Virus record (IMG/VR): IMGVR_UViG_2778261691_000002
Coordinates: 1-7,469 of that record
DNA: 7,469 nt
Origin: a virus
Lineage: Duplodnaviria; Heunggongvirae; Uroviricota; Caudoviricetes
Reading direction: 5' to 3' (one strand)
The stretch's first letter is position 1. Each line of letters begins with the position of its first letter. Shown piece by piece: positions 1-7,469 of this stretch. The notes under the pieces were generated by a model that was not told the origin of the DNA, made no database searches, and worked only from the letters and a program-made list of their open reading frames with translations. The translations under genes and the position numbers were made by a program.

Positions 1-46
1 CTGTGTTCTGGTCATTTGTTGACACACGTACATAGCCAATAAGCAT
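1..46 (-). CDS. Serine DNA invertase (Gin/Cin/Pin/Hin family), N-terminal 15 codons only; gene continues beyond the left window edge
   Basis: Reverse complement of 1..46 reads atg ctt att ggc tat gta cgt gtg tca aca aat gac cag aac aca g = MLIGYVRVSTNDQNT, the N-terminus I recognise from Gin/Pin-type invertases, including the catalytic-serine motif YVRVST. SD-like GGGAG lies 7 nt upstream on the minus strand (revcomp of 54..58). Located 55 bp from a 26-bp crossover site. Gin, Cin and Pin cannot be told apart from 15 residues. Confidence 0.85.
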   Translation of the reverse strand, partial: MLIGYVRVSTNDQNT

Positions 47-72
47 GGTAGATCTCCCTGACAAAAGCAGGA

Positions 73-594
73 ATGATGCCATTTGCTCGTTATTTCTGCA
101 TTTTCATAAACGTTGGTTTGGGAGAAGGTTCTGCGTTGCCTGTTGGCGTACCAGTTCCTTGGCCTTCAGCTACGCCGCCGACAGGCTGGCTGAAATGCAA
201 CGGAGCAGCTTTTTCTGCTGAAGATTACCCTAATCTGGCAAAGGCTTACCCGACGTTAAAATTGCCTGATTTACGCGGTGAGTTTATTCGTGGCTGGGAT
301 GATGGAAAGGGAGTGGATAGTGGGCGAACTCTGCTTTCAGCACAAGGAGATGCTATCCGAAACATTACCGGGGTGGTTGGCTACAGTTCAATTGGCGATT
401 CACAAGGGTTATTAGGATACGTGTCAGGGGCCTTTTCGGCTTCGGAGTCAAAAGCTCCCGCATTAAGTGGTGCATCAGCATCCGGGTATCAACGCTCCCT
501 GTATGCGAATTTTAATGCTTCAGCCGTTGTCCCAACCGCAAATGAGAACCGCCCACGTAACATTGCCTTTAATTATATTGTGAGGGCTGCATAA
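73..594 (+). CDS. Alternative tail-fibre C-terminal cassette (Sv'-like, tail-collar domain), silent in this orientation; functional boundary is the crossover site at 113/114, not the ATG at 73
   Basis: Tail-collar-type motif PTGWLKCNGAAFSAEDYPNLAKAYPTLKLPDLRGEFIRGWDDG. The ORF begins only ~40 nt upstream of the crossover site and has no fibre N-terminal domain. Stop TAA at 592..594 overlaps the ATG of the downstream tfa (TAATG). Confidence 0.75.
   Translation: MMPFARYFCIFINVGLGEGSALPVGVPVPWPSATPPTGWLKCNGAAFSAEDYPNLAKAYPTLKLPDLRGEFIRGWDDGKGVDSGRTLLSAQGDAIRNITGVVGYSSIGDSQGLLGYVSGAFSASESKAPALSGASASGYQRSLYANFNASAVVPTANENRPRNIAFNYIVRAA
101..126. repeat. 26-bp invertase crossover site (gix/pix/hix-like), left copy
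   Basis: Plus strand ttttcataaacg|tt|ggtttgggagaa. The reverse complement of 1992..2017 is ctctcgaaaacc|tt|ggtttgggagaa: 21 of 26 positions identical, same central TT dinucleotide, imperfect dyad symmetry like hix (TTATCAAAAACC TT GGTTTTCAAGAA). Confidence 0.8.
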
Positions 595-1196
595 TGGATA
601 ACGCTGTATTAAATAGCGAGATTATTGCCACGAAGGCAGGGAATATTACCGTCTATAACTATGATGGTGAAACACGGGAATATATTTCCACTTCAAATGA
701 ATATCTTGCCGTTGGTGTTGGTATCCCGGCATATTCCTGTTTAGATTCACCAGGCACATATAAGGCTGGTTATGCTATCTGCCGTTCTGCAGATTTTAAC
801 TCATGGGAATATGTGCCAGACCATCGCGGTGAAATCGTCTATAACACCGAAACGGGAGAAGCCAAAGAAATCACAACTCCGGGTGATTACCCTGAAAATA
901 CAACCACTATCGCCCCGTTAACGCCATACGATAAATGGGATGGTGAGAAATGGGTGACCGATACTGAGGCACAGCACGGCGCAGCAGTAGATGCAGCAGA
1001 AGCACAGCGCCAGTCGCTGATTGATACTGCAATGGCCTCCATCAGTCTGATTCATCTGAAATTACAGGCCGGACGGAAGCTGACGCAGGCAGAAACCACC
1101 CGACTTAACGCTGTGCTGGATTACATTGACGCGGTGACGGCAACAGATACCAGCACCGCGCCGGATGTCATCTGGCCTGAACTGCCGGAGGCGTAG
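594..1196 (+). CDS. Tail fibre assembly chaperone (Tfa family), cognate to the silent fibre cassette
   Basis: 200 aa. C-terminal Tfa signature ...LNAVLDYIDAVTATDTSTAPDVIWPELP (compare lambda Tfa ...VDTSTAPDIEWP...). Start is translationally coupled to the upstream cassette. Length matches what I recall for e14 TfaE. Confidence 0.85.
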   Translation: MDNAVLNSEIIATKAGNITVYNYDGETREYISTSNEYLAVGVGIPAYSCLDSPGTYKAGYAICRSADFNSWEYVPDHRGEIVYNTETGEAKEITTPGDYPENTTTIAPLTPYDKWDGEKWVTDTEAQHGAAVDAAEAQRQSLIDTAMASISLIHLKLQAGRKLTQAETTRLNAVLDYIDAVTATDTSTAPDVIWPELPEA

Positions 1197-1611
1197 GCCA
1201 TTCAATATCTGGCGCCCCGGAAGTATCGACCAGTTCCAGTGCGTCCAGATAATCCAGCCACAAATTATATTGCGCCAGCTCGTCACCTTTCAGACGACCA
1301 ATAGCGGCTTTACCGGGCCATTGTTTACTGTTCATGTATTCGTTGGCCTGGTTAATTAGTAGCTGTCTTTCTGATTCAGTAATTTCAATAAGTTCTTCAT
1401 GCGTGGGTGGAGGAATATCTGCCCACGCAGGCAGCCCATCATCTCCGGCAATACGGATTTTTCCTTGTGGCGGTTCAGCCATAAACTCACTGATAATATT
1501 TTGATTTACTTCCTTAGCGTCTGATAAATCCCACCCCTCTGATTTATATTTATCAATCATATCCACAGGGAAAAAAGCATTATGCCTTGCGCTATAAACA
1601 TATTCGTTCAT
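1168..1611 (-). CDS. Tail fibre assembly chaperone (Tfa family), cognate to the currently expressed fibre
   Basis: C-terminal Tfa signature ...LWLDYLDALELVDTSGAPDIEWPTPP. I prefer the ATG at 1611..1609 (MNEYVYSA...), which has AGGGTGA 7-13 nt upstream, over the GTG at 1620 used by the ORF track. Sits directly downstream of the fibre gene. Confidence 0.8.
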   Translation of the reverse strand: MNEYVYSARHNAFFPVDMIDKYKSEGWDLSDAKEVNQNIISEFMAEPPQGKIRIAGDDGLPAWADIPPPTHEELIEITESERQLLINQANEYMNSKQWPGKAAIGRLKGDELAQYNLWLDYLDALELVDTSGAPDIEWPTPPAVQAR

Positions 1612-1631
1612 ATAAATCACCCTGAATAAAA

Positions 1632-2360
1632 TTACTCACCAACAGCCCACCAACTGTAATTCATCGATACCGTGTCGCTGGTTGATGACGTTCTGTAAGC
1701 AGAATTAAAACCGGTTAATGTTGGGCCTTCTGCGGTCATCACGAATCCCCGCCCAGCACCTAAAGGCGCACCACCATCACCAGAATGAGTAAGCATGGCG
1801 CAGTCCACTTTTTTAGGAAAAGGGATGCTGAATGTAATTCTCATTGTTTGCGTCGATAATGTCGGCGTAACCGCACCACGACCATATTGCAGGATTTTCC
1901 CGTTGGGTAATTTCATCCATCCATCACCACTGGCAAAAGAGGCCATGTCCGGTATCTGATTTTCCCCTGTTCCCACCCCCCGTTTCGCTGCTTCTCCCAA
2001 ACCAAGGTTTTCGAGAGCCGTTTTCACCGTGCCATCCGATTTGATATCACCAAACGGATTCTTGCGGCTCAGGTATTCAACAGCAAACCCCGATCCCAGC
2101 AATTCAACAAAACCGGGCAGATCACCATTATCAAGCACATCCCGTTGCGTTTTATCACTTACAAACTGGGCCAGAGCTGCAGCAATAAAGCTGGCCTGCC
2201 GAATAACCTTATTGACTTGCGCACTGGAGGCTTTCCCTGCTGTAAATCCGGATAAAAGCGCAGGCAACGCTTCCCATTCCTCCTGCGACATAACATTGGC
2301 ATTTTTACCCGTTGCGAATGCTTTAAAGTCATTTTTTGCCATCAGAGTAATACTCCCCAT
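1632..2360 (-). CDS. Tail fibre protein: constant N-terminal part (2360..2006) fused at the crossover site to a variable C-terminal receptor-binding part (1991..1632)
   Basis: Position at the end of the baseplate operon and followed by Tfa. The crossover site is in frame inside the ORF. An alternative start at ATG 2342..2340 (MAKNDF...) overlaps the upstream stop as TGATG and may be the true start. Short for a fibre (236-242 aa). Confidence 0.75.
1992..2017. repeat. 26-bp invertase crossover site, right copy, in inverted orientation relative to 101..126
   Basis: Plus strand ttctcccaaacc|aa|ggttttcgagag. Lies inside the minus-strand tail-fibre ORF, where it encodes ...ALENLGLGE... at the constant/variable junction. 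Confidence 0.8.
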
Positions 2361-3022
2361 GCCCCTACATCAAAACCACTGATAAATTCGTTATCCATAT
2401 CAAAACCAAAAAATTTTGAACCTTCCGATGGGGTTTCCACCGAAGGTGTTTCAATACCACCCGCCCACACCCCGGCGGCTTTTACTGTGAGATATCCCTG
2501 TTTAATTGCAGCAATTAACTCACGCGATACATCTGAAATATCAGTATCAGGAAAGACCCAGACCGATATCGTCATGTCCTGGTTATCGACAATCTGCATT
2601 CGCAGCCCGGATCCTGCTGTCGCCGTGTCAAGAATTGCTGGAAGCGAATCATTCCGTCCGTCCCAGTTATTAATCGCAATCTTCGCTTTAAGAATGACAC
2701 GATAAGTTTCATCGCTGAGATACATGTATCCTGAATCAGGATCGTATGGTCCCTGCCATACCCCCTGATCATATCCAAGCCCGTCGGTATCCCAGCTGAA
2801 ATAGACACCTGAGATAGGCTGGCTGACAACACGGCTACGTCCGATCCACAATCCAAGAATGTCAAGTTGCACACCAACCGCAGAGTCAATATCAAATGCA
2901 GTAATCAGCCCTCTGGTGGCAGCCGCAACATCAATAAGTGGCCGGGTCATCAGATCAACATGCGCAAGAAATTTAGGTTTGGTGGCGTGGTAGTTCGTGA
3001 TTAGTTCGGTGTATTTGCTCAT
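2342..3022 (-). CDS. Baseplate / tail-fibre-proximal protein (DUF2612-like; position equivalent to P2 gpI or Mu gp48)
   Basis: 226 aa. ATGA overlap with the upstream J-like gene at 3019..3022. Sits between the baseplate J-like gene and the tail fibre. Family assignment is by synteny and recollection, not a search. Confidence 0.6.
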
Positions 3023-4218
3023 GTCTCCACCGTTATAACGATATTTTCCGGGGTACAGGACGCAGATTCGTTGTATCTGATATCAATGTTTGATGACGAC
3101 AAAGCCCCCGGGGATTTCCCAATCGTCAGTTCCTGAATATCGTAATAGCGTGCATTCCCGCCACTCACCACGCCAAGATTCGCCGGTGAGTAAATGCGAC
3201 TTAAAAGGACCGAATCACCAATCATCAGACTATTGATATAGTCGGAAATAGCCTGCTGGATCTGCTGCCCTATCTGTGAGGTATAACCCGTAAAAACTTT
3301 TAATTTAATCCGGGCATAAACAGGTACATCACTGGAACGCGAAAATTTGATTACATGGGGATTGCCGTATTTATCCGGAACCGTAACGGATGTTGTACCG
3401 TGAGTGGCTGTTCCCTGGCCTTTATTCCCTCTGATAGCCTGAGCAATATCCGTCACATCACCGCCATCCACAATTACAGCAACAGAGTGTGGCGGTAACC
3501 CGTTACCGTCCTCCGAACCATTATCGTTTTCATAGAGTTTGTGGCGGGTTACACCGGTAACATTAGAAACAGCACCATTCAGTGCTTCAAATGGGGTTAT
3601 TGATGGTAACGCAACACTTTGCGACTGTCGGATACGTAACTCCGCATCAGTTTCTGCTGGAGTGCCTACAGTAGCTGCAGCAGGATTGGTTACCGAAACC
3701 CAGCCACGGGTTGGCGTATTAATTTCAGTGATAGTTCCAGCCAGCGCCGCCACTGCACCACTGACGGAACATGTTGCGGTCACCATCACTGTACCATCCA
3801 CGCCGACCACCACTGAAGCAGGCAAACGCCATATCACATTATTACTGTCTTTCACGCTGCCATTAATGATGGTTGTTCCGGCAGTTCCTGTAAGAAGCAA
3901 ATCAACCGTAGAATTCGTCGCGCCTTTACGTGAAATACCATTTATTTTCACGTTACTGGTCAGTGCAGCCCCATAGCCGGTTGCCGGTGAAAAACAGTTG
4001 TAGACAGTTATCGCCATATTATTGGCATCATGAATCGCCAGCGCCATCAGAGCCACCATCTGGCCGTCTTTGCTGTCCGGTTCGAGGTAGGCATCACTGC
4101 CATAAATCTGCTGAAAATAGCTAATCAGGGTGCTGAGTATCGTCTGATAATCAGGCGCACTGATCCCCTCCGCGGTTACCTTTGCAGATAAACCGAGAGA
4201 ATCAAGGTTCAGAGCCAT
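3019..4218 (-). CDS. Baseplate J-like protein (P2 gpJ / Mu gp47 / T4 gp6 family)
   Basis: 399 aa. TAATG stop/start overlap with the upstream W-like gene at 4216..4220. Position after the gp25/W-like gene. Gly/Thr/Val-rich beta-type composition typical of baseplate wedge proteins. Confidence 0.7.
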   Translation of the reverse strand: MALNLDSLGLSAKVTAEGISAPDYQTILSTLISYFQQIYGSDAYLEPDSKDGQMVALMALAIHDANNMAITVYNCFSPATGYGAALTSNVKINGISRKGATNSTVDLLLTGTAGTTIINGSVKDSNNVIWRLPASVVVGVDGTVMVTATCSVSGAVAALAGTITEINTPTRGWVSVTNPAAATVGTPAETDAELRIRQSQSVALPSITPFEALNGAVSNVTGVTRHKLYENDNGSEDGNGLPPHSVAVIVDGGDVTDIAQAIRGNKGQGTATHGTTSVTVPDKYGNPHVIKFSRSSDVPVYARIKLKVFTGYTSQIGQQIQQAISDYINSLMIGDSVLLSRIYSPANLGVVSGGNARYYDIQELTIGKSPGALSSSNIDIRYNESASCTPENIVITVET

Positions 4219-4571
4219 TACGCCTCCGATGTAACAGTCGTTATTCCATAAAGAGTGTCGATTTCAGCGGAAAACATGACACGTCGGGTCGTGGTATCCA
4301 CCGTCGTATTGAAAGAGAGGATTGATTTAACGCCCTGCGTTTCGAGGATGCGCTTACGGATCGCCAGGTTGTAGGTTTCCGGCTTCTGCTTACCGAGTAC
4401 GGACTGGATCCACGGAGTCCCCTCGGTGGTGTCGAGAAACCATTGCCCATACCACAATTCGAATCGCGTTTTTACCGCCTGCGCCACGGCCTCCGGTGAG
4501 TTAATCAGCCAGGTGTCATCACCGCTGCCAAAGGTGTAATCGCCATCGGCGTCTTCACGTCTGTATCGCAT
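4218..4571 (-). CDS. Baseplate protein, GPW/gp25-like (P2 gpW / Mu gp46 position)
   Basis: 117 aa, the typical size for this family. TGATG overlap with the upstream spike gene at 4569..4573. Synteny V-W-J. Confidence 0.6.
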   Translation of the reverse strand: MRYRREDADGDYTFGSGDDTWLINSPEAVAQAVKTRFELWYGQWFLDTTEGTPWIQSVLGKQKPETYNLAIRKRILETQGVKSILSFNTTVDTTTRRVMFSAEIDTLYGITTVTSEA

Positions 4572-5323
4572 CAGTTTACTCCGTCGGTATTGCTTCCACC
4601 GCGCTGAACACCACCATGAGTGTGCGTATCATCAATTGGCTTGCCGTTAGCCTTCACGCTACCCAAAAACTCAACAGCACCAGTGATTTTTGAAGCCACA
4701 CCAGAAACCACAGACCCCACCATGCCACCCATCCAGGTTAACAGGCCATGAATGGTTACTTTCTCAGAAAAATCAGCCAGAGGGGCAACCACATCAAGAC
4801 CACCCGGAGCGACAATTTTAATTTTCCTGGTATCAGGATTAAGCTCAAAATAGGTGCTGCCGTCATCACTACGCAACTGTGTGGCACTGGTATTAATACC
4901 GCTAATCTTCCTTGCCTGCGACTGGGGACCGACAATACAAAACGCATCCGATAAATCATGCATTCTGTCATCGACCGGCTCCTGTATCCCGCCGCTCTGC
5001 CACCAGAAATCAATACAACGATCGGCAAAAATCATCAAACATTCATCACCGGCTTTAACTGGGAACGTTAGCGTGCATCCTCCGCCGCGCGGGAATACCA
5101 CTGGCACATCCACCAGCAATGGGTAATTTTGGGTAATGCGGTTGCCGTCATTATCCTTTTCAACCGAACGGATAGCAGGCTGCACAACTGCCGTCACCGC
5201 ATCAGGATCGAATGACTGAATAATGCCAGGCAAGGCGACACGGATCTGGTTCTTTGTTGTTTCCCGTTCAGATTTGAATGTTTCGGCAAGGTCGCCGCTG
5301 CGGGTCTGGTCAGATACGGCCAT
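4571..5323 (-). CDS. Baseplate central spike / assembly protein V-like (P2 gpV / Mu gp45 position)
   Basis: 250 aa. ATG at 5323..5321 with GGAG about 10 nt upstream. C-terminal tip ...KPIDDTHTHGGVQRGG has an HxH motif like the metal-binding spike apex. First gene after the inserted cassette and terminator. Confidence 0.65.
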   Translation of the reverse strand: MAVSDQTRSGDLAETFKSERETTKNQIRVALPGIIQSFDPDAVTAVVQPAIRSVEKDNDGNRITQNYPLLVDVPVVFPRGGGCTLTFPVKAGDECLMIFADRCIDFWWQSGGIQEPVDDRMHDLSDAFCIVGPQSQARKISGINTSATQLRSDDGSTYFELNPDTRKIKIVAPGGLDVVAPLADFSEKVTIHGLLTWMGGMVGSVVSGVASKITGAVEFLGSVKANGKPIDDTHTHGGVQRGGSNTDGVN

Positions 5324-5342
5324 TTAGTAGGCTCCAGAAAGC

Positions 5343-5367
5343 AAAAAACCCGCCTGGTGGCGGGTTT
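5343..5367 (-). terminator. Rho-independent terminator for minus-strand transcription
   Basis: Minus-strand RNA: aaacccgcc-acca-ggcggguuuuuu. A GC-rich 6-9 bp stem (cccgcc/ggcggg at 5349..5354 and 5359..5364), 4-nt loop, then a U6 tract. Lies 18 nt downstream of the 57-aa ORF stop and ~20 nt upstream of the spike gene SD. Confidence 0.8.
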
Positions 5368-5384
5368 GATTTATAAGAACTTCA

Positions 5385-5558
5385 CTAACTATCTTTCTTG
5401 GGAAAAGTTGAAGGCTTGTCGTGATAGCTTTCCGTCATAATTTCGATATCCCCGAAAGGTACTCTAGCCATAATCTCTTGCTCATAGTTATCTAGGAAAG
5501 AGACCTCAGGCTCACTTGGTTTAGGTTGTGGTTCATTTTGGTCTTCTGGACAGGACAT
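5385..5558 (-). CDS. Hypothetical small acidic Pro/Glu-rich protein (57 aa), putative partner of the membrane protein
   Basis: Hand translation: MSCPEDQNEPQPKPSEPEVSFLDNYEQEIMARVPFGDIEIMTESYHDKPSTFPKKDS. The ATG at 5558 is 2 nt after the TGA of the upstream membrane gene (TGAatATG), with AAGG 7 nt upstream. Ends 18 nt before the terminator. Not in the ORF track (under 60 aa). No family recognised; could be non-coding. Confidence 0.4.
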   Translation of the reverse strand: MSCPEDQNEPQPKPSEPEVSFLDNYEQEIMARVPFGDIEIMTESYHDKPSTFPKKDS

Positions 5559-5560
5559 AT

Positions 5561-6091
5561 TCAAACCTTACTTATTAACATGCACGTTACAGAAATAATA
5601 AAAAATACAAATGACATAACCATCCATCGAAACAACTCATTTACAAACGCTGATTTTTCTTTATGGATTTTCTCGATTCTATCAATAGCCCTACCATACA
5701 TTATCAAATGAAATCTGACTGTGTCATCTCTACTACCCCTCAGAAGAAATTCATGTTGTTCAGGTGTTCGATGCACAGGCATTTTGGGAATATTTCTAAG
5801 TTCCCAACATTTCCATAAATAATAAAAACAAAAAACCAAACATACAAAACATGAACATAGACACAATAGAGACAATCTTGCGGATAGACTAGTCTTTAAC
5901 TGTTGTCCCAGCTCAAAGGACCCAAAAACGGCTAATAATGCAGAAATCTCAACACCAAGCACAGCAAGAAGAAAATTAGCTTTGTCCTCTAACCGCCTGT
6001 ATGTTGTCTTAACTTCTTCATACCTGTCTCTCGAGTACGACAAAATCGTATCTACTTCAAGGCCAACAGCCTCATTCCTTTGATTGCACAT
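5561..6091 (-). CDS. Hypothetical three-TM membrane protein (176 aa) encoded in an AT-rich insert; no family recognised
   Basis: ATG at 6091..6089. Charged N-terminal ~40 aa, then hydrophobic segments FLLAVLGVEISALLAVFGSF, LSLLCLCSCFVCLVFCFYYLW and WMVMSFVFFIISVTCMLI, with a charged ~60-aa loop between the second and third. An open frame of 176 codons in roughly 36% GC DNA is unlikely by chance. Begins 6 nt after the stop of the signal-peptide gene. Confidence 0.6.
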   Translation of the reverse strand: MCNQRNEAVGLEVDTILSYSRDRYEEVKTTYRRLEDKANFLLAVLGVEISALLAVFGSFELGQQLKTSLSARLSLLCLCSCFVCLVFCFYYLWKCWELRNIPKMPVHRTPEQHEFLLRGSRDDTVRFHLIMYGRAIDRIEKIHKEKSAFVNELFRWMVMSFVFFIISVTCMLISKV

Positions 6092-6097
6092 ATTGTA

Positions 6098-6451
6098 TTA
6101 ATCGTCAACCTTCTTACAAGGAAACGAACCTATGATTCTCGGCGCATCCATGCTGTTCTGCAGTAGTTGGACATTCAAGAAACGCGTTTCGGTACCCGGA
6201 CGGCGAATGAACTCGAAACCGTAATTGTTACCGTCTTTGGCTGGCATAAGCCCCATATCCGCCTTCATTCCATTACCGTTGCCGAGCGTTTTGATTTTCT
6301 GGGAGGTAACTGTCTCACCATTAATCCTGAACAATGAATCAGGAATCAACTCTAATTTGTAGCCACCACACTGAAGCGTGACACCGCCAGGATTCGCAGC
6401 AAATGCGAACCCCGGAAGGAAACAGAGTCCAATAACAATCCACTTTTTCAC
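6098..6451 (-). CDS. Hypothetical secreted/periplasmic protein with Sec signal peptide (117 aa)
   Basis: N-terminus MKKWIVIGLCFLPGFAFA|ANPGG is a classic signal peptide with an AFA-A signal peptidase I site and no lipobox. GTG start at 6451..6449 shares one base with the TAG of the upstream gene (taGTG), with GAGG upstream. Two Cys in the mature part (possible disulfide). Normal GC (~47%). Confidence 0.65.
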   Translation of the reverse strand: MKKWIVIGLCFLPGFAFAANPGGVTLQCGGYKLELIPDSLFRINGETVTSQKIKTLGNGNGMKADMGLMPAKDGNNYGFEFIRRPGTETRFLNVQLLQNSMDAPRIIGSFPCKKVDD

Positions 6452-7469
6452 TATCCTACCTCACGCTGTAAAGACGACGCCGAACGAAGATCCGCCGCAC
6501 CGCGCGCTTCGCACATCATATCCATGTACCACGCCTGGCCCCTTGTGTCGCCAGTGTACATAATCCCGCGCACAATATAAACGCCATCCGTTGCGATGCT
6601 GGCAGGCTGCGATATGGTGCCGCTTAGCGTAATATTTCCGTCCGTGTTCTGGTCGGTGATCTGCCCACCAGCCATAGCGATATCGTTGTTCGACAACGCG
6701 GTGCGATATACGGAAGCCTGATCCAGTTGAATGAGCCCATTAACCCGGATGTTCGGATTAATAAGCGCGCGGACGTTTACGCCGTTGCCGATGGTCTGCT
6801 GCGGCATGCCAATAAGCCCGGTAGCGCTGTTGAGCACAATCGCTTCGTGAACATATTCATTATTCACCACCATCTGGCGCTGACCATCCACGAATTGCCA
6901 TGTTGCGCCACATTGCCCGGCTACGTTATCCATTAGATGCCGCGTCATGCCAAAGAGCACCCGCCCCCGGGGGAATACAGTAGCAGGCATTTCAGGCGTC
7001 AGGCCTTCGGTCGCACCTTTGGCTTCGAAGTCTTTCATCAGCGCACGGTTCACATCAGCGACCGTGTAACCGGCAGCCAGCGTCTGTGAGGTTATACTGG
7101 TGGCAAAAGCCAGATCAGTATCTGCTGCCTGAATCAGGACGTAGGAATCAACCGGACTGTCTTTTCCTGTGACCGAGTAGCGAATTTCACCGCTGAAAAT
7201 CAGTCCGTAGTTGCGGCCATCTCTCTGGCCCACATCTGCCGCGTCGACTTCGCGCACGGTCCCGACGTCGCTTGCCGCCACCTCCGGCGCGATACCGTCG
7301 TAACCGGCAATCAGCCGCACTTTCGAAAATTCCTTCCCGGTGATTCGGTTCACAGTATCTGCCGAGAGGTTATAAATTTTGATAGTCCCTACCCGGGACG
7401 CGCTGCTGATGTTGAACCAGTCGATCGTAAAGGTGACTTTGAAATCACTTAGCTCAATTCCCTGACCGT
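6451..7469 (-). CDS. Phage tail/baseplate structural protein, 5'-truncated by the window edge (possibly baseplate hub, Mu gp44 / P2 gpD position)
   Basis: The frame stays open from the annotated GTG at 7353 up to position 7469 (hand-translated upstream codons ...GQGIELSDFKVTFTIDWFNISSASRVGTIKIYNLSADT-V-NRITGKEF...), so the real start is outside the window. Gly/Thr/Asn/Val-rich composition. The hub assignment is from synteny only. Confidence 0.5.
   Translation of the reverse strand, partial: GQGIELSDFKVTFTIDWFNISSASRVGTIKIYNLSADTVNRITGKEFSKVRLIAGYDGIAPEVAASDVGTVREVDAADVGQRDGRNYGLIFSGEIRYSVTGKDSPVDSYVLIQAADTDLAFATSITSQTLAAGYTVADVNRALMKDFEAKGATEGLTPEMPATVFPRGRVLFGMTRHLMDNVAGQCGATWQFVDGQRQMVVNNEYVHEAIVLNSATGLIGMPQQTIGNGVNVRALINPNIRVNGLIQLDQASVYRTALSNNDIAMAGGQITDQNTDGNITLSGTISQPASIATDGVYIVRGIMYTGDTRGQAWYMDMMCEARGAADLRSASSLQREVG

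Follow-up and report, generated by a model that had tools for sequence, protein, structure and literature searches.

A two-gene cassette encoding a three-helix membrane protein and a small acidic peptide in a cargo slot of an Escherichia coli prophage

Introduction

PycTM is the membrane-impairing effector of Pycsar and is activated by cyclic CMP or cyclic UMP (cCMP or cUMP; PMC11224242, PMC12489823). In the SpoIISA/SpoIISB pair of Bacillus, a toxin with three transmembrane (TM) helices and a cytoplasmic domain is accompanied by a downstream antitoxin, which is a hydrophilic, largely disordered protein of about 56 amino acids (aa) (PMC3057836, PMC4926146). The locus described here shares features with both systems. 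It lies in the virus record IMGVR_UViG_2778261691_000002 (Caudoviricetes), of which positions 1 to 7,469 were analyzed; this whole stretch of 7,469 nucleotides (nt) is referred to as the window. The window covers a block of tail and baseplate genes in an E. coli prophage, with 100% identity to strain ECONIH2 and 99.6% to IAI1. At positions 5385-6097 it harbors a gene for a small membrane protein and, directly downstream, a gene for an acidic peptide. A further point of comparison is HK97 gp15, which is reportedly a tail-region moron for superinfection exclusion.

The comparisons presented below identify positions 5385-6097 as a horizontally acquired two-gene accessory cassette ('moron') in a variable prophage cargo slot. 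Its two products form a conserved, apparently translationally coupled pair, and the cassette is probably a membrane-acting anti-phage or toxin-antitoxin-like module.

A membrane-protein gene missing from RefSeq

The cassette consists of two genes.

5561-6091, minus strand: membrane-protein gene, 176 aa with three TM helices, the sole open frame of six; PHROG 18554, 5e-60
5385-5558, minus strand: second cassette gene, encoding an acidic peptide of 57 aa with an isoelectric point of 4.25; PHROG 18231, 2e-6

The original prediction had regarded the open reading frame (ORF) at 5561-6091 as real, with the caveat that a T-rich coding strand might produce a spurious one. Conservation across homologues bears out the former and counters the latter. 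The other five frames across this interval contain 4-20 stops each. In all orthologues down to 43% identity the frame is open and interrupted by neither stops nor frameshifts. The window and Salmonella copies of the gene differ at 54 nucleotides, 35 of which are third codon positions; the ratio of nonsynonymous to synonymous substitution rates (dN/dS) for this pair is 0.105 with a dS of 0.42. In comparisons with the distant orthologues the synonymous sites are saturated, yet the proteins are still about 50% (43-52%) identical. The ORF at 5561-6091 is thus a real gene that is unannotated in RefSeq.

A search of 5.8 billion proteins yielded 18 close homologues, some of them 90% identical and originating from Salmonella; four full-length homologues and one fragment, all from metagenome or read-archive contigs, are 49-56% identical. 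Further orthologues at 52% and 43% identity, with the frame open in all, came from a scan of viral contigs. By tblastn, the membrane protein had no match among 50,697 deposited phage records and none among 72,556 plasmids, and a profile scan of genome contigs with the close alignment gave no match. Pfam and NCBIfam scans assigned no family to either the membrane protein or the 57-aa peptide.

In strains IAI1, ECONIH2 and 2011C-4315, RefSeq/PGAP places no feature in the 775-bp stretch between the two genes that flank the cassette, which encode the tail spike and a 117-aa protein. This stretch corresponds to positions 5324-6097 of the window, 6025-6798 of locus L001 and 1525-2298 of loci L003 and L004. 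The series of locus tags skips one number at this point, which suggests that a gene call was dropped. Some GenBank records do call the membrane protein ('hypothetical protein D0Y99_18855'). Both PHROGs, 18554 for the membrane protein and 18231 for the peptide, are annotated as 'unknown function'.

The partner peptide

The ATG of the peptide gene is located 2 nt past the stop codon of the membrane-protein gene and is preceded by AAGG 7 nt upstream. An ORF of 56-63 aa follows the membrane-protein gene in all six phage-type loci (the window, L008, L009, L012, L013/L030 and L031). The pairing is thus kept down to 43% identity of the membrane protein, the motif VPFG(D/G)LxxxTES or VPFGD(I/L)xxxTES is conserved among the peptides, and their dN/dS is about 0.18. 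Relatives of the membrane protein at about 20% identity show the same arrangement. An ORF of 28-54 aa starting between -4 and +12 nt from the stop codon occurs in 9 of 12 such loci, compared to 31 of 197 control ORFs (15.7%; P=8e-6), although the effective sample is smaller since two pairs among the 12 loci are close relatives. One of these downstream ORFs is a RefSeq-annotated coding sequence of 51 aa on the Acinetobacter baumannii plasmid pK09-14. The distant peptides are rich in Pro, Lys, Glu and Gln and appear by eye to have the core P-x-(L/I)-x-V-x-(T/R)-E-(S/G)-(Y/F) in common. Of 3760 segments scored with a hidden Markov model (HMM) of the phage peptides, the two top-ranked were the downstream ORFs of Pseudomonas (E 0.02-0.04), and sequence-level support obtained with this model reaches the Pseudomonas peptides only.

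In seven representatives of the family (P0025, P0027, P0032, P0033, P0040, P0045 and P0047) the peptide is fused to the membrane protein as a C-terminal tail. The fused tails show a similar PxLxxxxES motif and often a Met at the junction. An AlphaFold2 (AF2) model of the fusion P0047 reproduced the core fold with predicted local distance difference test (pLDDT) values of 85-94, and the tail is disordered in this model. The free peptides carry no signal sequence. The 57-aa peptide has no PADLOC match. In alignment A8 the peptides are (K/E/Q)-P-rich in their N-terminal halves, which resemble extended spacer regions.

A variable cargo slot in the tail region

The host element of the cassette is a SEN34/Brunovirus-like E. 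coli prophage of the SEN34-like myovirus type, and the cassette is bordered there by the following features.

6098-6451, minus strand: upstream flank of the slot, gene for a 117-aa protein with an N-terminal signal peptide; PHROG 3443, 1e-46
5346-5367, minus strand: intrinsic terminator hairpin with a 9-bp stem containing 6 GC pairs, followed by a T tract
4571-5323, minus strand: downstream flank of the slot, tail spike gene, encoding a membrane-puncturing spike with N-terminal domain and apex motif

In the DX6 prophage the slot is empty, so that the 117-aa gene adjoins the spike gene, while the flanks and the terminator are conserved. The slot of AR_452 holds a YafO toxin and a 190-aa ORF, Sx181 and phage SEN34 (genus Brunovirus) harbor two other ORFs, and in E. 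coli NRZ96606 the cassette is replaced by a zinc-ribbon-like ORF on the opposite strand. These other cargos lie between conserved flanks, and none of them has a PADLOC match. The GC content of the cassette (5385-6097) is 37.3%, compared to 50.3% in the spike gene and 56% in the hub gene. The region thus displays two of the features by which morons are recognized, a presence/absence or replacement polymorphism between conserved flanks and a deviant base composition. Of 5426 complete E. coli genomes, eight contain the cassette, and 215 contain part of the 1.2-kb query, mostly the flanking genes. In the contig collection, 1249 blocks list one and the same Salmonella protein, and degraded prophage remnants beside sopE are among them.

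The terminator hairpin lies just upstream of the ribosome-binding site of the spike gene and is kept in DX6 with its empty slot, in SEN34, AR_452, Sx181 and Salmonella, and in loci L009 and L031. The terminator and the ribosome-binding site of the spike gene therefore belong to the phage backbone, and the terminator marks the downstream edge of the cargo slot. As a strong and conserved terminator is situated within the tail operon, expression of the spike and the downstream baseplate genes must read through it, which implies antitermination or an undetected promoter. At the upstream edge, the stop codon of the 117-aa gene is located 6 nt ahead of the ATG of the membrane-protein gene. A promoter scan revealed no convincing candidate for the cassette; a promoter-like site (TTGTAA-16-TACAAT) abuts the ATG and is not usable.

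The flanking 117-aa gene deserves separate mention. It is situated inside the baseplate block, overlaps the end of the hub gene by 1 nt and is absent from phage SEN34. Its product carries a cleavable-looking signal peptide (MKKWIVIGLCFLPGFAFA/AN), and has neither a Pfam or NCBIfam family nor a PADLOC match; one RefSeq record lists it as 'STY1065/STY2022 family phage-derived protein'. As a secreted protein it is unlikely to be part of the virion, so it may itself represent accessory cargo, for example an exclusion factor. The ORF in the slot of NRZ96606 (locus L033, 2140-2424, plus strand) is unannotated and contains two CxxC pairs (…KCLHCGAWF…CPKCHK…) that look like a zinc ribbon. The terminator is missing from this slot.

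Protein architecture and the Cys-rich helix

The AF2 model of the membrane protein has a mean pLDDT of 80, with helices at residues 10-58, 69-97, 110-118 and 121-175. The predicted layout and the segment of particular interest are as follows.

Residues 1-176, predicted layout: cytoplasmic N-terminal helix with a YRRLEDK motif; TM1 at aa 40-58; TM2 at aa 73-96; cytoplasmic helical region at 97-150; TM3 at 151-173
5804-5875, minus strand: Cys-rich TM2 segment LSLLCLCSCFVCLVFCFYYLWKCW, aa 73-96, second of three hydrophobic helices, 6 Cys

An exhaustive HMM search of 1.84 billion representatives retrieved 37 proteins at E<=1e-3, and a further homologue search seeded with distant members retrieved four proteins only. 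The family is rare and unnamed; database entries for its proteins are limited to hypothetical-protein records and PHROGs without an assigned function. Its members share one layout. The N-terminal helix carries a near-invariant E-x-K immediately ahead of TM1, TM2 ends in A-W, a P-x-M-P turn is present, and about 50 aa of helical structure, in which one Lys is near-invariant, precede TM3. In the membrane protein of the cassette, E35, K37 and K146 are family-invariant. Counts of Lys plus Arg across the family are 3.3 in the N-terminal flank, 2.5 after TM2 and 3.1 before TM3, whereas loop 1 has 1.1 and the C-terminus 0.8, a distribution that indicates an N-in/C-out topology. Structure searches returned generic helical bundles only, and Foldseek against viral structures found nothing at E<=0.001. 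Comparison of the family profile with all PDB sequences gave no significant match; the best was the cytoplasmic domain of SpoIISA (E=0.25, 14 bits, about 41 residues).

The second helix had been singled out in the original prediction for seven Cys in about 25 residues. The segment exists, but the count is six in 24 residues (C77, C79, C81, C84, C88 and C95), and the whole protein contains eight. Nucleotide shuffles of the ORF gave a mean maximum of 2.9 Cys per 24-aa window, with a probability of 0.009 for six or more, while shuffling of the T-rich segment alone (43 T of 72 nt) gave a mean of 2.0 Cys (P=0.0085). The enrichment is thus real, though just moderately above composition. The suspicion that composition contributes was right in kind, as the coding strand is 36% T and all six Cys codons of the helix are TGT.

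The Cys residues themselves are poorly conserved. C81 is the only one kept in all phage-type orthologues; C88 is replaced by Ser in L031 and C95 by Ser in Salmonella. The number of Cys in TM2 is six in the window, five in Salmonella, 1-4 in the other phage orthologues and 0-3 in the distant relatives. Metal binding or another specific Cys motif, as had been proposed, finds no support in this pattern, and a metal or disulphide motif was rejected because the Cys are not conserved among homologues. By contrast, the columns of C81, C84, C88 and C95 are occupied by small residues (Ala, Ser, Thr, Gly or Cys) throughout the 39 family members. Column 81 contains Thr in 15, Cys in 10, Ser in four and Ala in three members, column 88 contains Ala in 21, Ser in eight and Cys in six, and column 95 contains Ser in 16, Ala in 15 and Cys in two. 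On a helical wheel C77, C81, C84, C88 and C95 fall within 20-80 degrees, which places five of the six Cys on one face of the helix. Small-residue columns on one face fit helix-helix packing. The proposed oligomerization therefore remains plausible, with a packing face as its basis, whereas a Cys-specific function is not indicated. The simplest reading of the alignment would be a conserved small-residue packing face that an AT-rich lineage has filled with Cys, favored by TGT codon usage. The Cys-rich helix would then serve as a worked example of a conspicuous pattern explained by a conserved packing face and codon bias rather than by metal chemistry.

Genomic context of the distant relatives

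The distant relatives, at about 20% identity, are found in diverse loci. In Pseudomonas, one (L040) is encoded between DarT1-NADAR and an Mrr-nSTAND3 gene, and another (L041) is located near a reverse transcriptase and a DUF4062 protein. The Marinobacterium gene (L038) lies beside an integron-type integrase, and that of Acinetobacter pittii (L014) adjoins a SEFIR/TIR gene and Tn7 TniQ/TniB. An Acinetobacter prophage (L045) carries its copy after a Mu-F gene in the phage head module, and a further relative (L042) is situated near Zot. Others are present on Acinetobacter plasmids of 7.8-14.8 kb, beside RelE/ParE. Among 74 neighboring ORFs from 11 distant loci, no Pfam family occurs in more than one locus, which indicates that neither a large partner nor a cyclase is shared by these loci. 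Candidate partners in the distant loci have no PADLOC match.

An ORF of 233 aa (L040, 5162-5863; L041, 5166-5867) is conserved directly upstream of the membrane-protein-plus-peptide pair in two different Pseudomonas islands. Neither Pfam nor PADLOC matches it, and in that lineage the pair may have it as a third component.

Possible functions of the cassette

PADLOC analysis of the window matched three PycTM models only, with E values of 2.6e-4, 6.1e-4 and 1.5e-3 (16-19 bits); these matches are weak and cover aa 24-104 of the membrane protein only. Eleven of the 39 family members match PycTM models (best 2e-5) and almost no other defense model. Precomputed PF18967 tags are carried by five close homologues and by P0059. 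PF18967 is presumably the PycTM domain. Live Pfam scans of the membrane protein gave no PF18967 match even at E<=10.

We infer toxicity, a regulatory role of the peptide and a defense function for this locus. The reading that we favor, if tentatively, is that the cassette encodes a latent membrane effector or toxin held in check by its peptide and serves as a moron for abortive infection, exclusion or addiction. The product of the first gene would be an inner-membrane protein with a cytoplasmic N-terminus and three TM helices, in which the N-terminal helix and residues 97-150 would build a cytoplasmic helical bundle. The second gene would provide a disordered acidic peptide of 57 aa that acts with the first product and is apparently translationally coupled to it, as the 2-nt spacing suggests. 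The membrane protein may be a latent membrane-permeabilizing effector of the PycTM kind or a SpoIISA-like toxin, oligomerizing via the small-residue, here Cys-rich, face of TM2, and the peptide may restrain or regulate it like an antitoxin or a sensor. The effector would be released when another phage infects the cell or when the element is lost, and the resulting abortive infection or exclusion would benefit the lysogen.

Several observations weigh against this proposal. The similarity to PycTM is weak and partial and does not reach any curated threshold, the membrane protein has no family in live Pfam and NCBIfam scans, and the structure searches gave nothing beyond generic helical bundles. 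AF2 leaves the fused tail disordered, and no docking site for the peptide was seen. With an N-in/C-out topology the fused tails would be periplasmic, whereas the free peptides lack an export signal. A promoter-like site suited to lysogenic expression was not found in the scan, and because the membrane-protein gene begins 6 nt past the upstream gene, it may be expressed solely with the late tail operon. In addition, several neighbors of the distant relatives are housekeeping genes.

A more far-reaching version is possible, though held with greater reserve. The cassette may represent a previously unrecognized, self-contained two-gene anti-phage or toxin-antitoxin system, in which the peptide, with its PxLxVxTES(Y/F)-like motif, would act as sensor or antitoxin and the membrane protein as a PycTM-like pore-former independent of a nucleotide signal. 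Such a system would move among prophage slots, integron-associated loci, small plasmids and defense islands of Gammaproteobacteria. If the cassette does work in defense or as a toxin-antitoxin module, a compact membrane effector plus peptide system of about 0.7 kb is invisible to RefSeq/PGAP, Pfam, NCBIfam and PADLOC 2.0, and a PycTM-like effector is able to work without a cyclase. The widespread Salmonella copy would then be a candidate contributor to phage resistance, and more cargo such as YafO might be sought in the slot that SEN34-like prophages have between the hub side and the spike gene.

Among the alternatives, non-lethal superinfection exclusion comes first. The membrane protein and the peptide would prevent incoming phages from injecting DNA, or would block their receptor function, and the cell would survive; HK97 gp15, a tail-region moron, and T4 Imm offer analogies. 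An inner-membrane protein in a tail-region cargo slot, beside a secreted 117-aa protein and with cargo that differs between related prophages, is consistent with this explanation. It is nevertheless unlikely, since relatives are also encoded on small plasmids, next to an integron-type integrase and in defense islands with abortive-type systems, the sole model similarity is to the killing effector PycTM, and exclusion proteins are not known to have a conserved or fused peptide partner.

Decidedly unlikely is a pure addiction or stabilization module without an anti-phage role, in which a membrane toxin would be paired with a labile small antitoxin as in SpoIISA/SpoIISB. In favor of such a module are the gene order, with the three-TM protein first and a hydrophilic product of about 56 aa second, the copies next to RelE/ParE on the small Acinetobacter plasmids and the YafO toxin in the equivalent slot of AR_452. 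However, similarity to SpoIISA is not significant, and the fused forms and the defense-island context fit a sensor-effector at least equally well. The mechanism also overlaps with that of the favored effector-peptide reading.

It is highly improbable that the membrane protein is an orphan Pycsar-type effector which answers cCMP or cUMP from a cyclase encoded at another site in the host or on a different element. The weak PycTM matches, the PF18967 tags and a length of 176 aa, near the 154-165 of the PycTM models, point in this direction. But the similarity is sub-threshold, neither the window nor any orthologous locus contains a cyclase, no Pfam family recurs among the 74 neighbors of the distant relatives, and the conserved partner is a peptide.

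A lytic-cycle function is hardly credible. As a holin- or antiholin-like factor of lysis control, or as a tail or baseplate assembly factor, the protein would be produced with the late operon, and its gene does lie on the same strand as the tail genes, at tight spacing and without a detected promoter of its own. Yet the DX6 module has no cargo in the slot but is otherwise intact, unrelated cargo fills the slot elsewhere, no endolysin or spanin is encoded nearby, where the neighbors are baseplate and tail genes, and the locations of relatives include plasmids, chromosomal islands and the neighborhood of an integron-type integrase. The deposited phage records gave no tblastn match. A holin in particular was rejected, as lysis cassette neighbors are missing and the family is not restricted to phages. 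Finally, a spurious ORF produced by the T-rich strand, for which the missing RefSeq/PGAP call in three genomes, the low GC content and the absence of a good Shine-Dalgarno sequence ahead of the ATG could be cited, has a practically negligible probability and was rejected by the comparative data given above, together with the conserved motifs and the high AF2 confidence.

Other features of the window

At the other end of the window, a 20-nt inverted repeat with 95% complementarity is located at 108-127 and 1991-2010. It contains AAACCAAGGTTT, which is presumably the core of Hin/Gin/Cin-type crossover sites. The repeat brackets 1.9 kb (108-2010) with two opposed sets, each composed of a tail-fibre C-terminus and a tail-fibre assembly gene.

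73-594 and 594-1196, plus strand: first tail-fibre set
1632-2360 and 1168-1620, minus strand: second tail-fibre set

The two tail-fibre assembly proteins are 33% identical over 80 aa. The segment 108-2010 resembles the Mu G segment and has the look of an invertible host-range switch; its invertase would be encoded outside the window.

Comparison with known systems

Like PycTM, the membrane protein of the cassette is a small multi-helix inner-membrane protein (176 aa compared to model lengths of 154-165). It has an N-terminal helix that ends in acidic-x-Lys and is followed by two TM helices, so that aa 24-94 align to profile positions 9-75, and its relatives are located on mobile or defense-type loci. 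In contrast to PycTM, no pyrimidine cyclase is adjacent in any locus, and PycC is found neither among the ORFs of the window nor in the orthologous loci; the constant partner is a coupled or fused mini-peptide. The third TM helix and the conserved cytoplasmic helical region of 50 aa are not covered by the PycTM match. A canonical Pycsar system was rejected because there is no adjacent cyclase.

The cassette resembles SpoIISA/SpoIISB in that a gene for a protein with three TM helices is followed by a gene for a small hydrophilic protein. However, there is no significant sequence similarity between the two (E=0.25 over about 41 residues), and they occur in different taxa. SpoIISA is also larger (248 aa) and has a GAF-like domain, unlike the membrane protein of the cassette. 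Neither the pairing of the membrane protein with the peptide nor its distribution was found described in the libraries and literature searched, and the annotations of PHROG 18554 and PHROG 18231 link the two neither with each other nor with their relatives outside phages. Likewise, the slot between the 117-aa gene and the spike gene of SEN34-like prophages was not found described as a hotspot in limited literature searches.

Compared to HK97 gp15, the cargo proteins are unrelated and no promoter was identified for the cassette. With tail-region morons and the anti-phage hotspots of P2/P4-like elements, on the other hand, the locus shares the arrangement of optional AT-rich cargo between conserved structural genes, bounded by a terminator. 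As in tail-region morons, this cargo is swapped between related prophages, the YafO toxin included.

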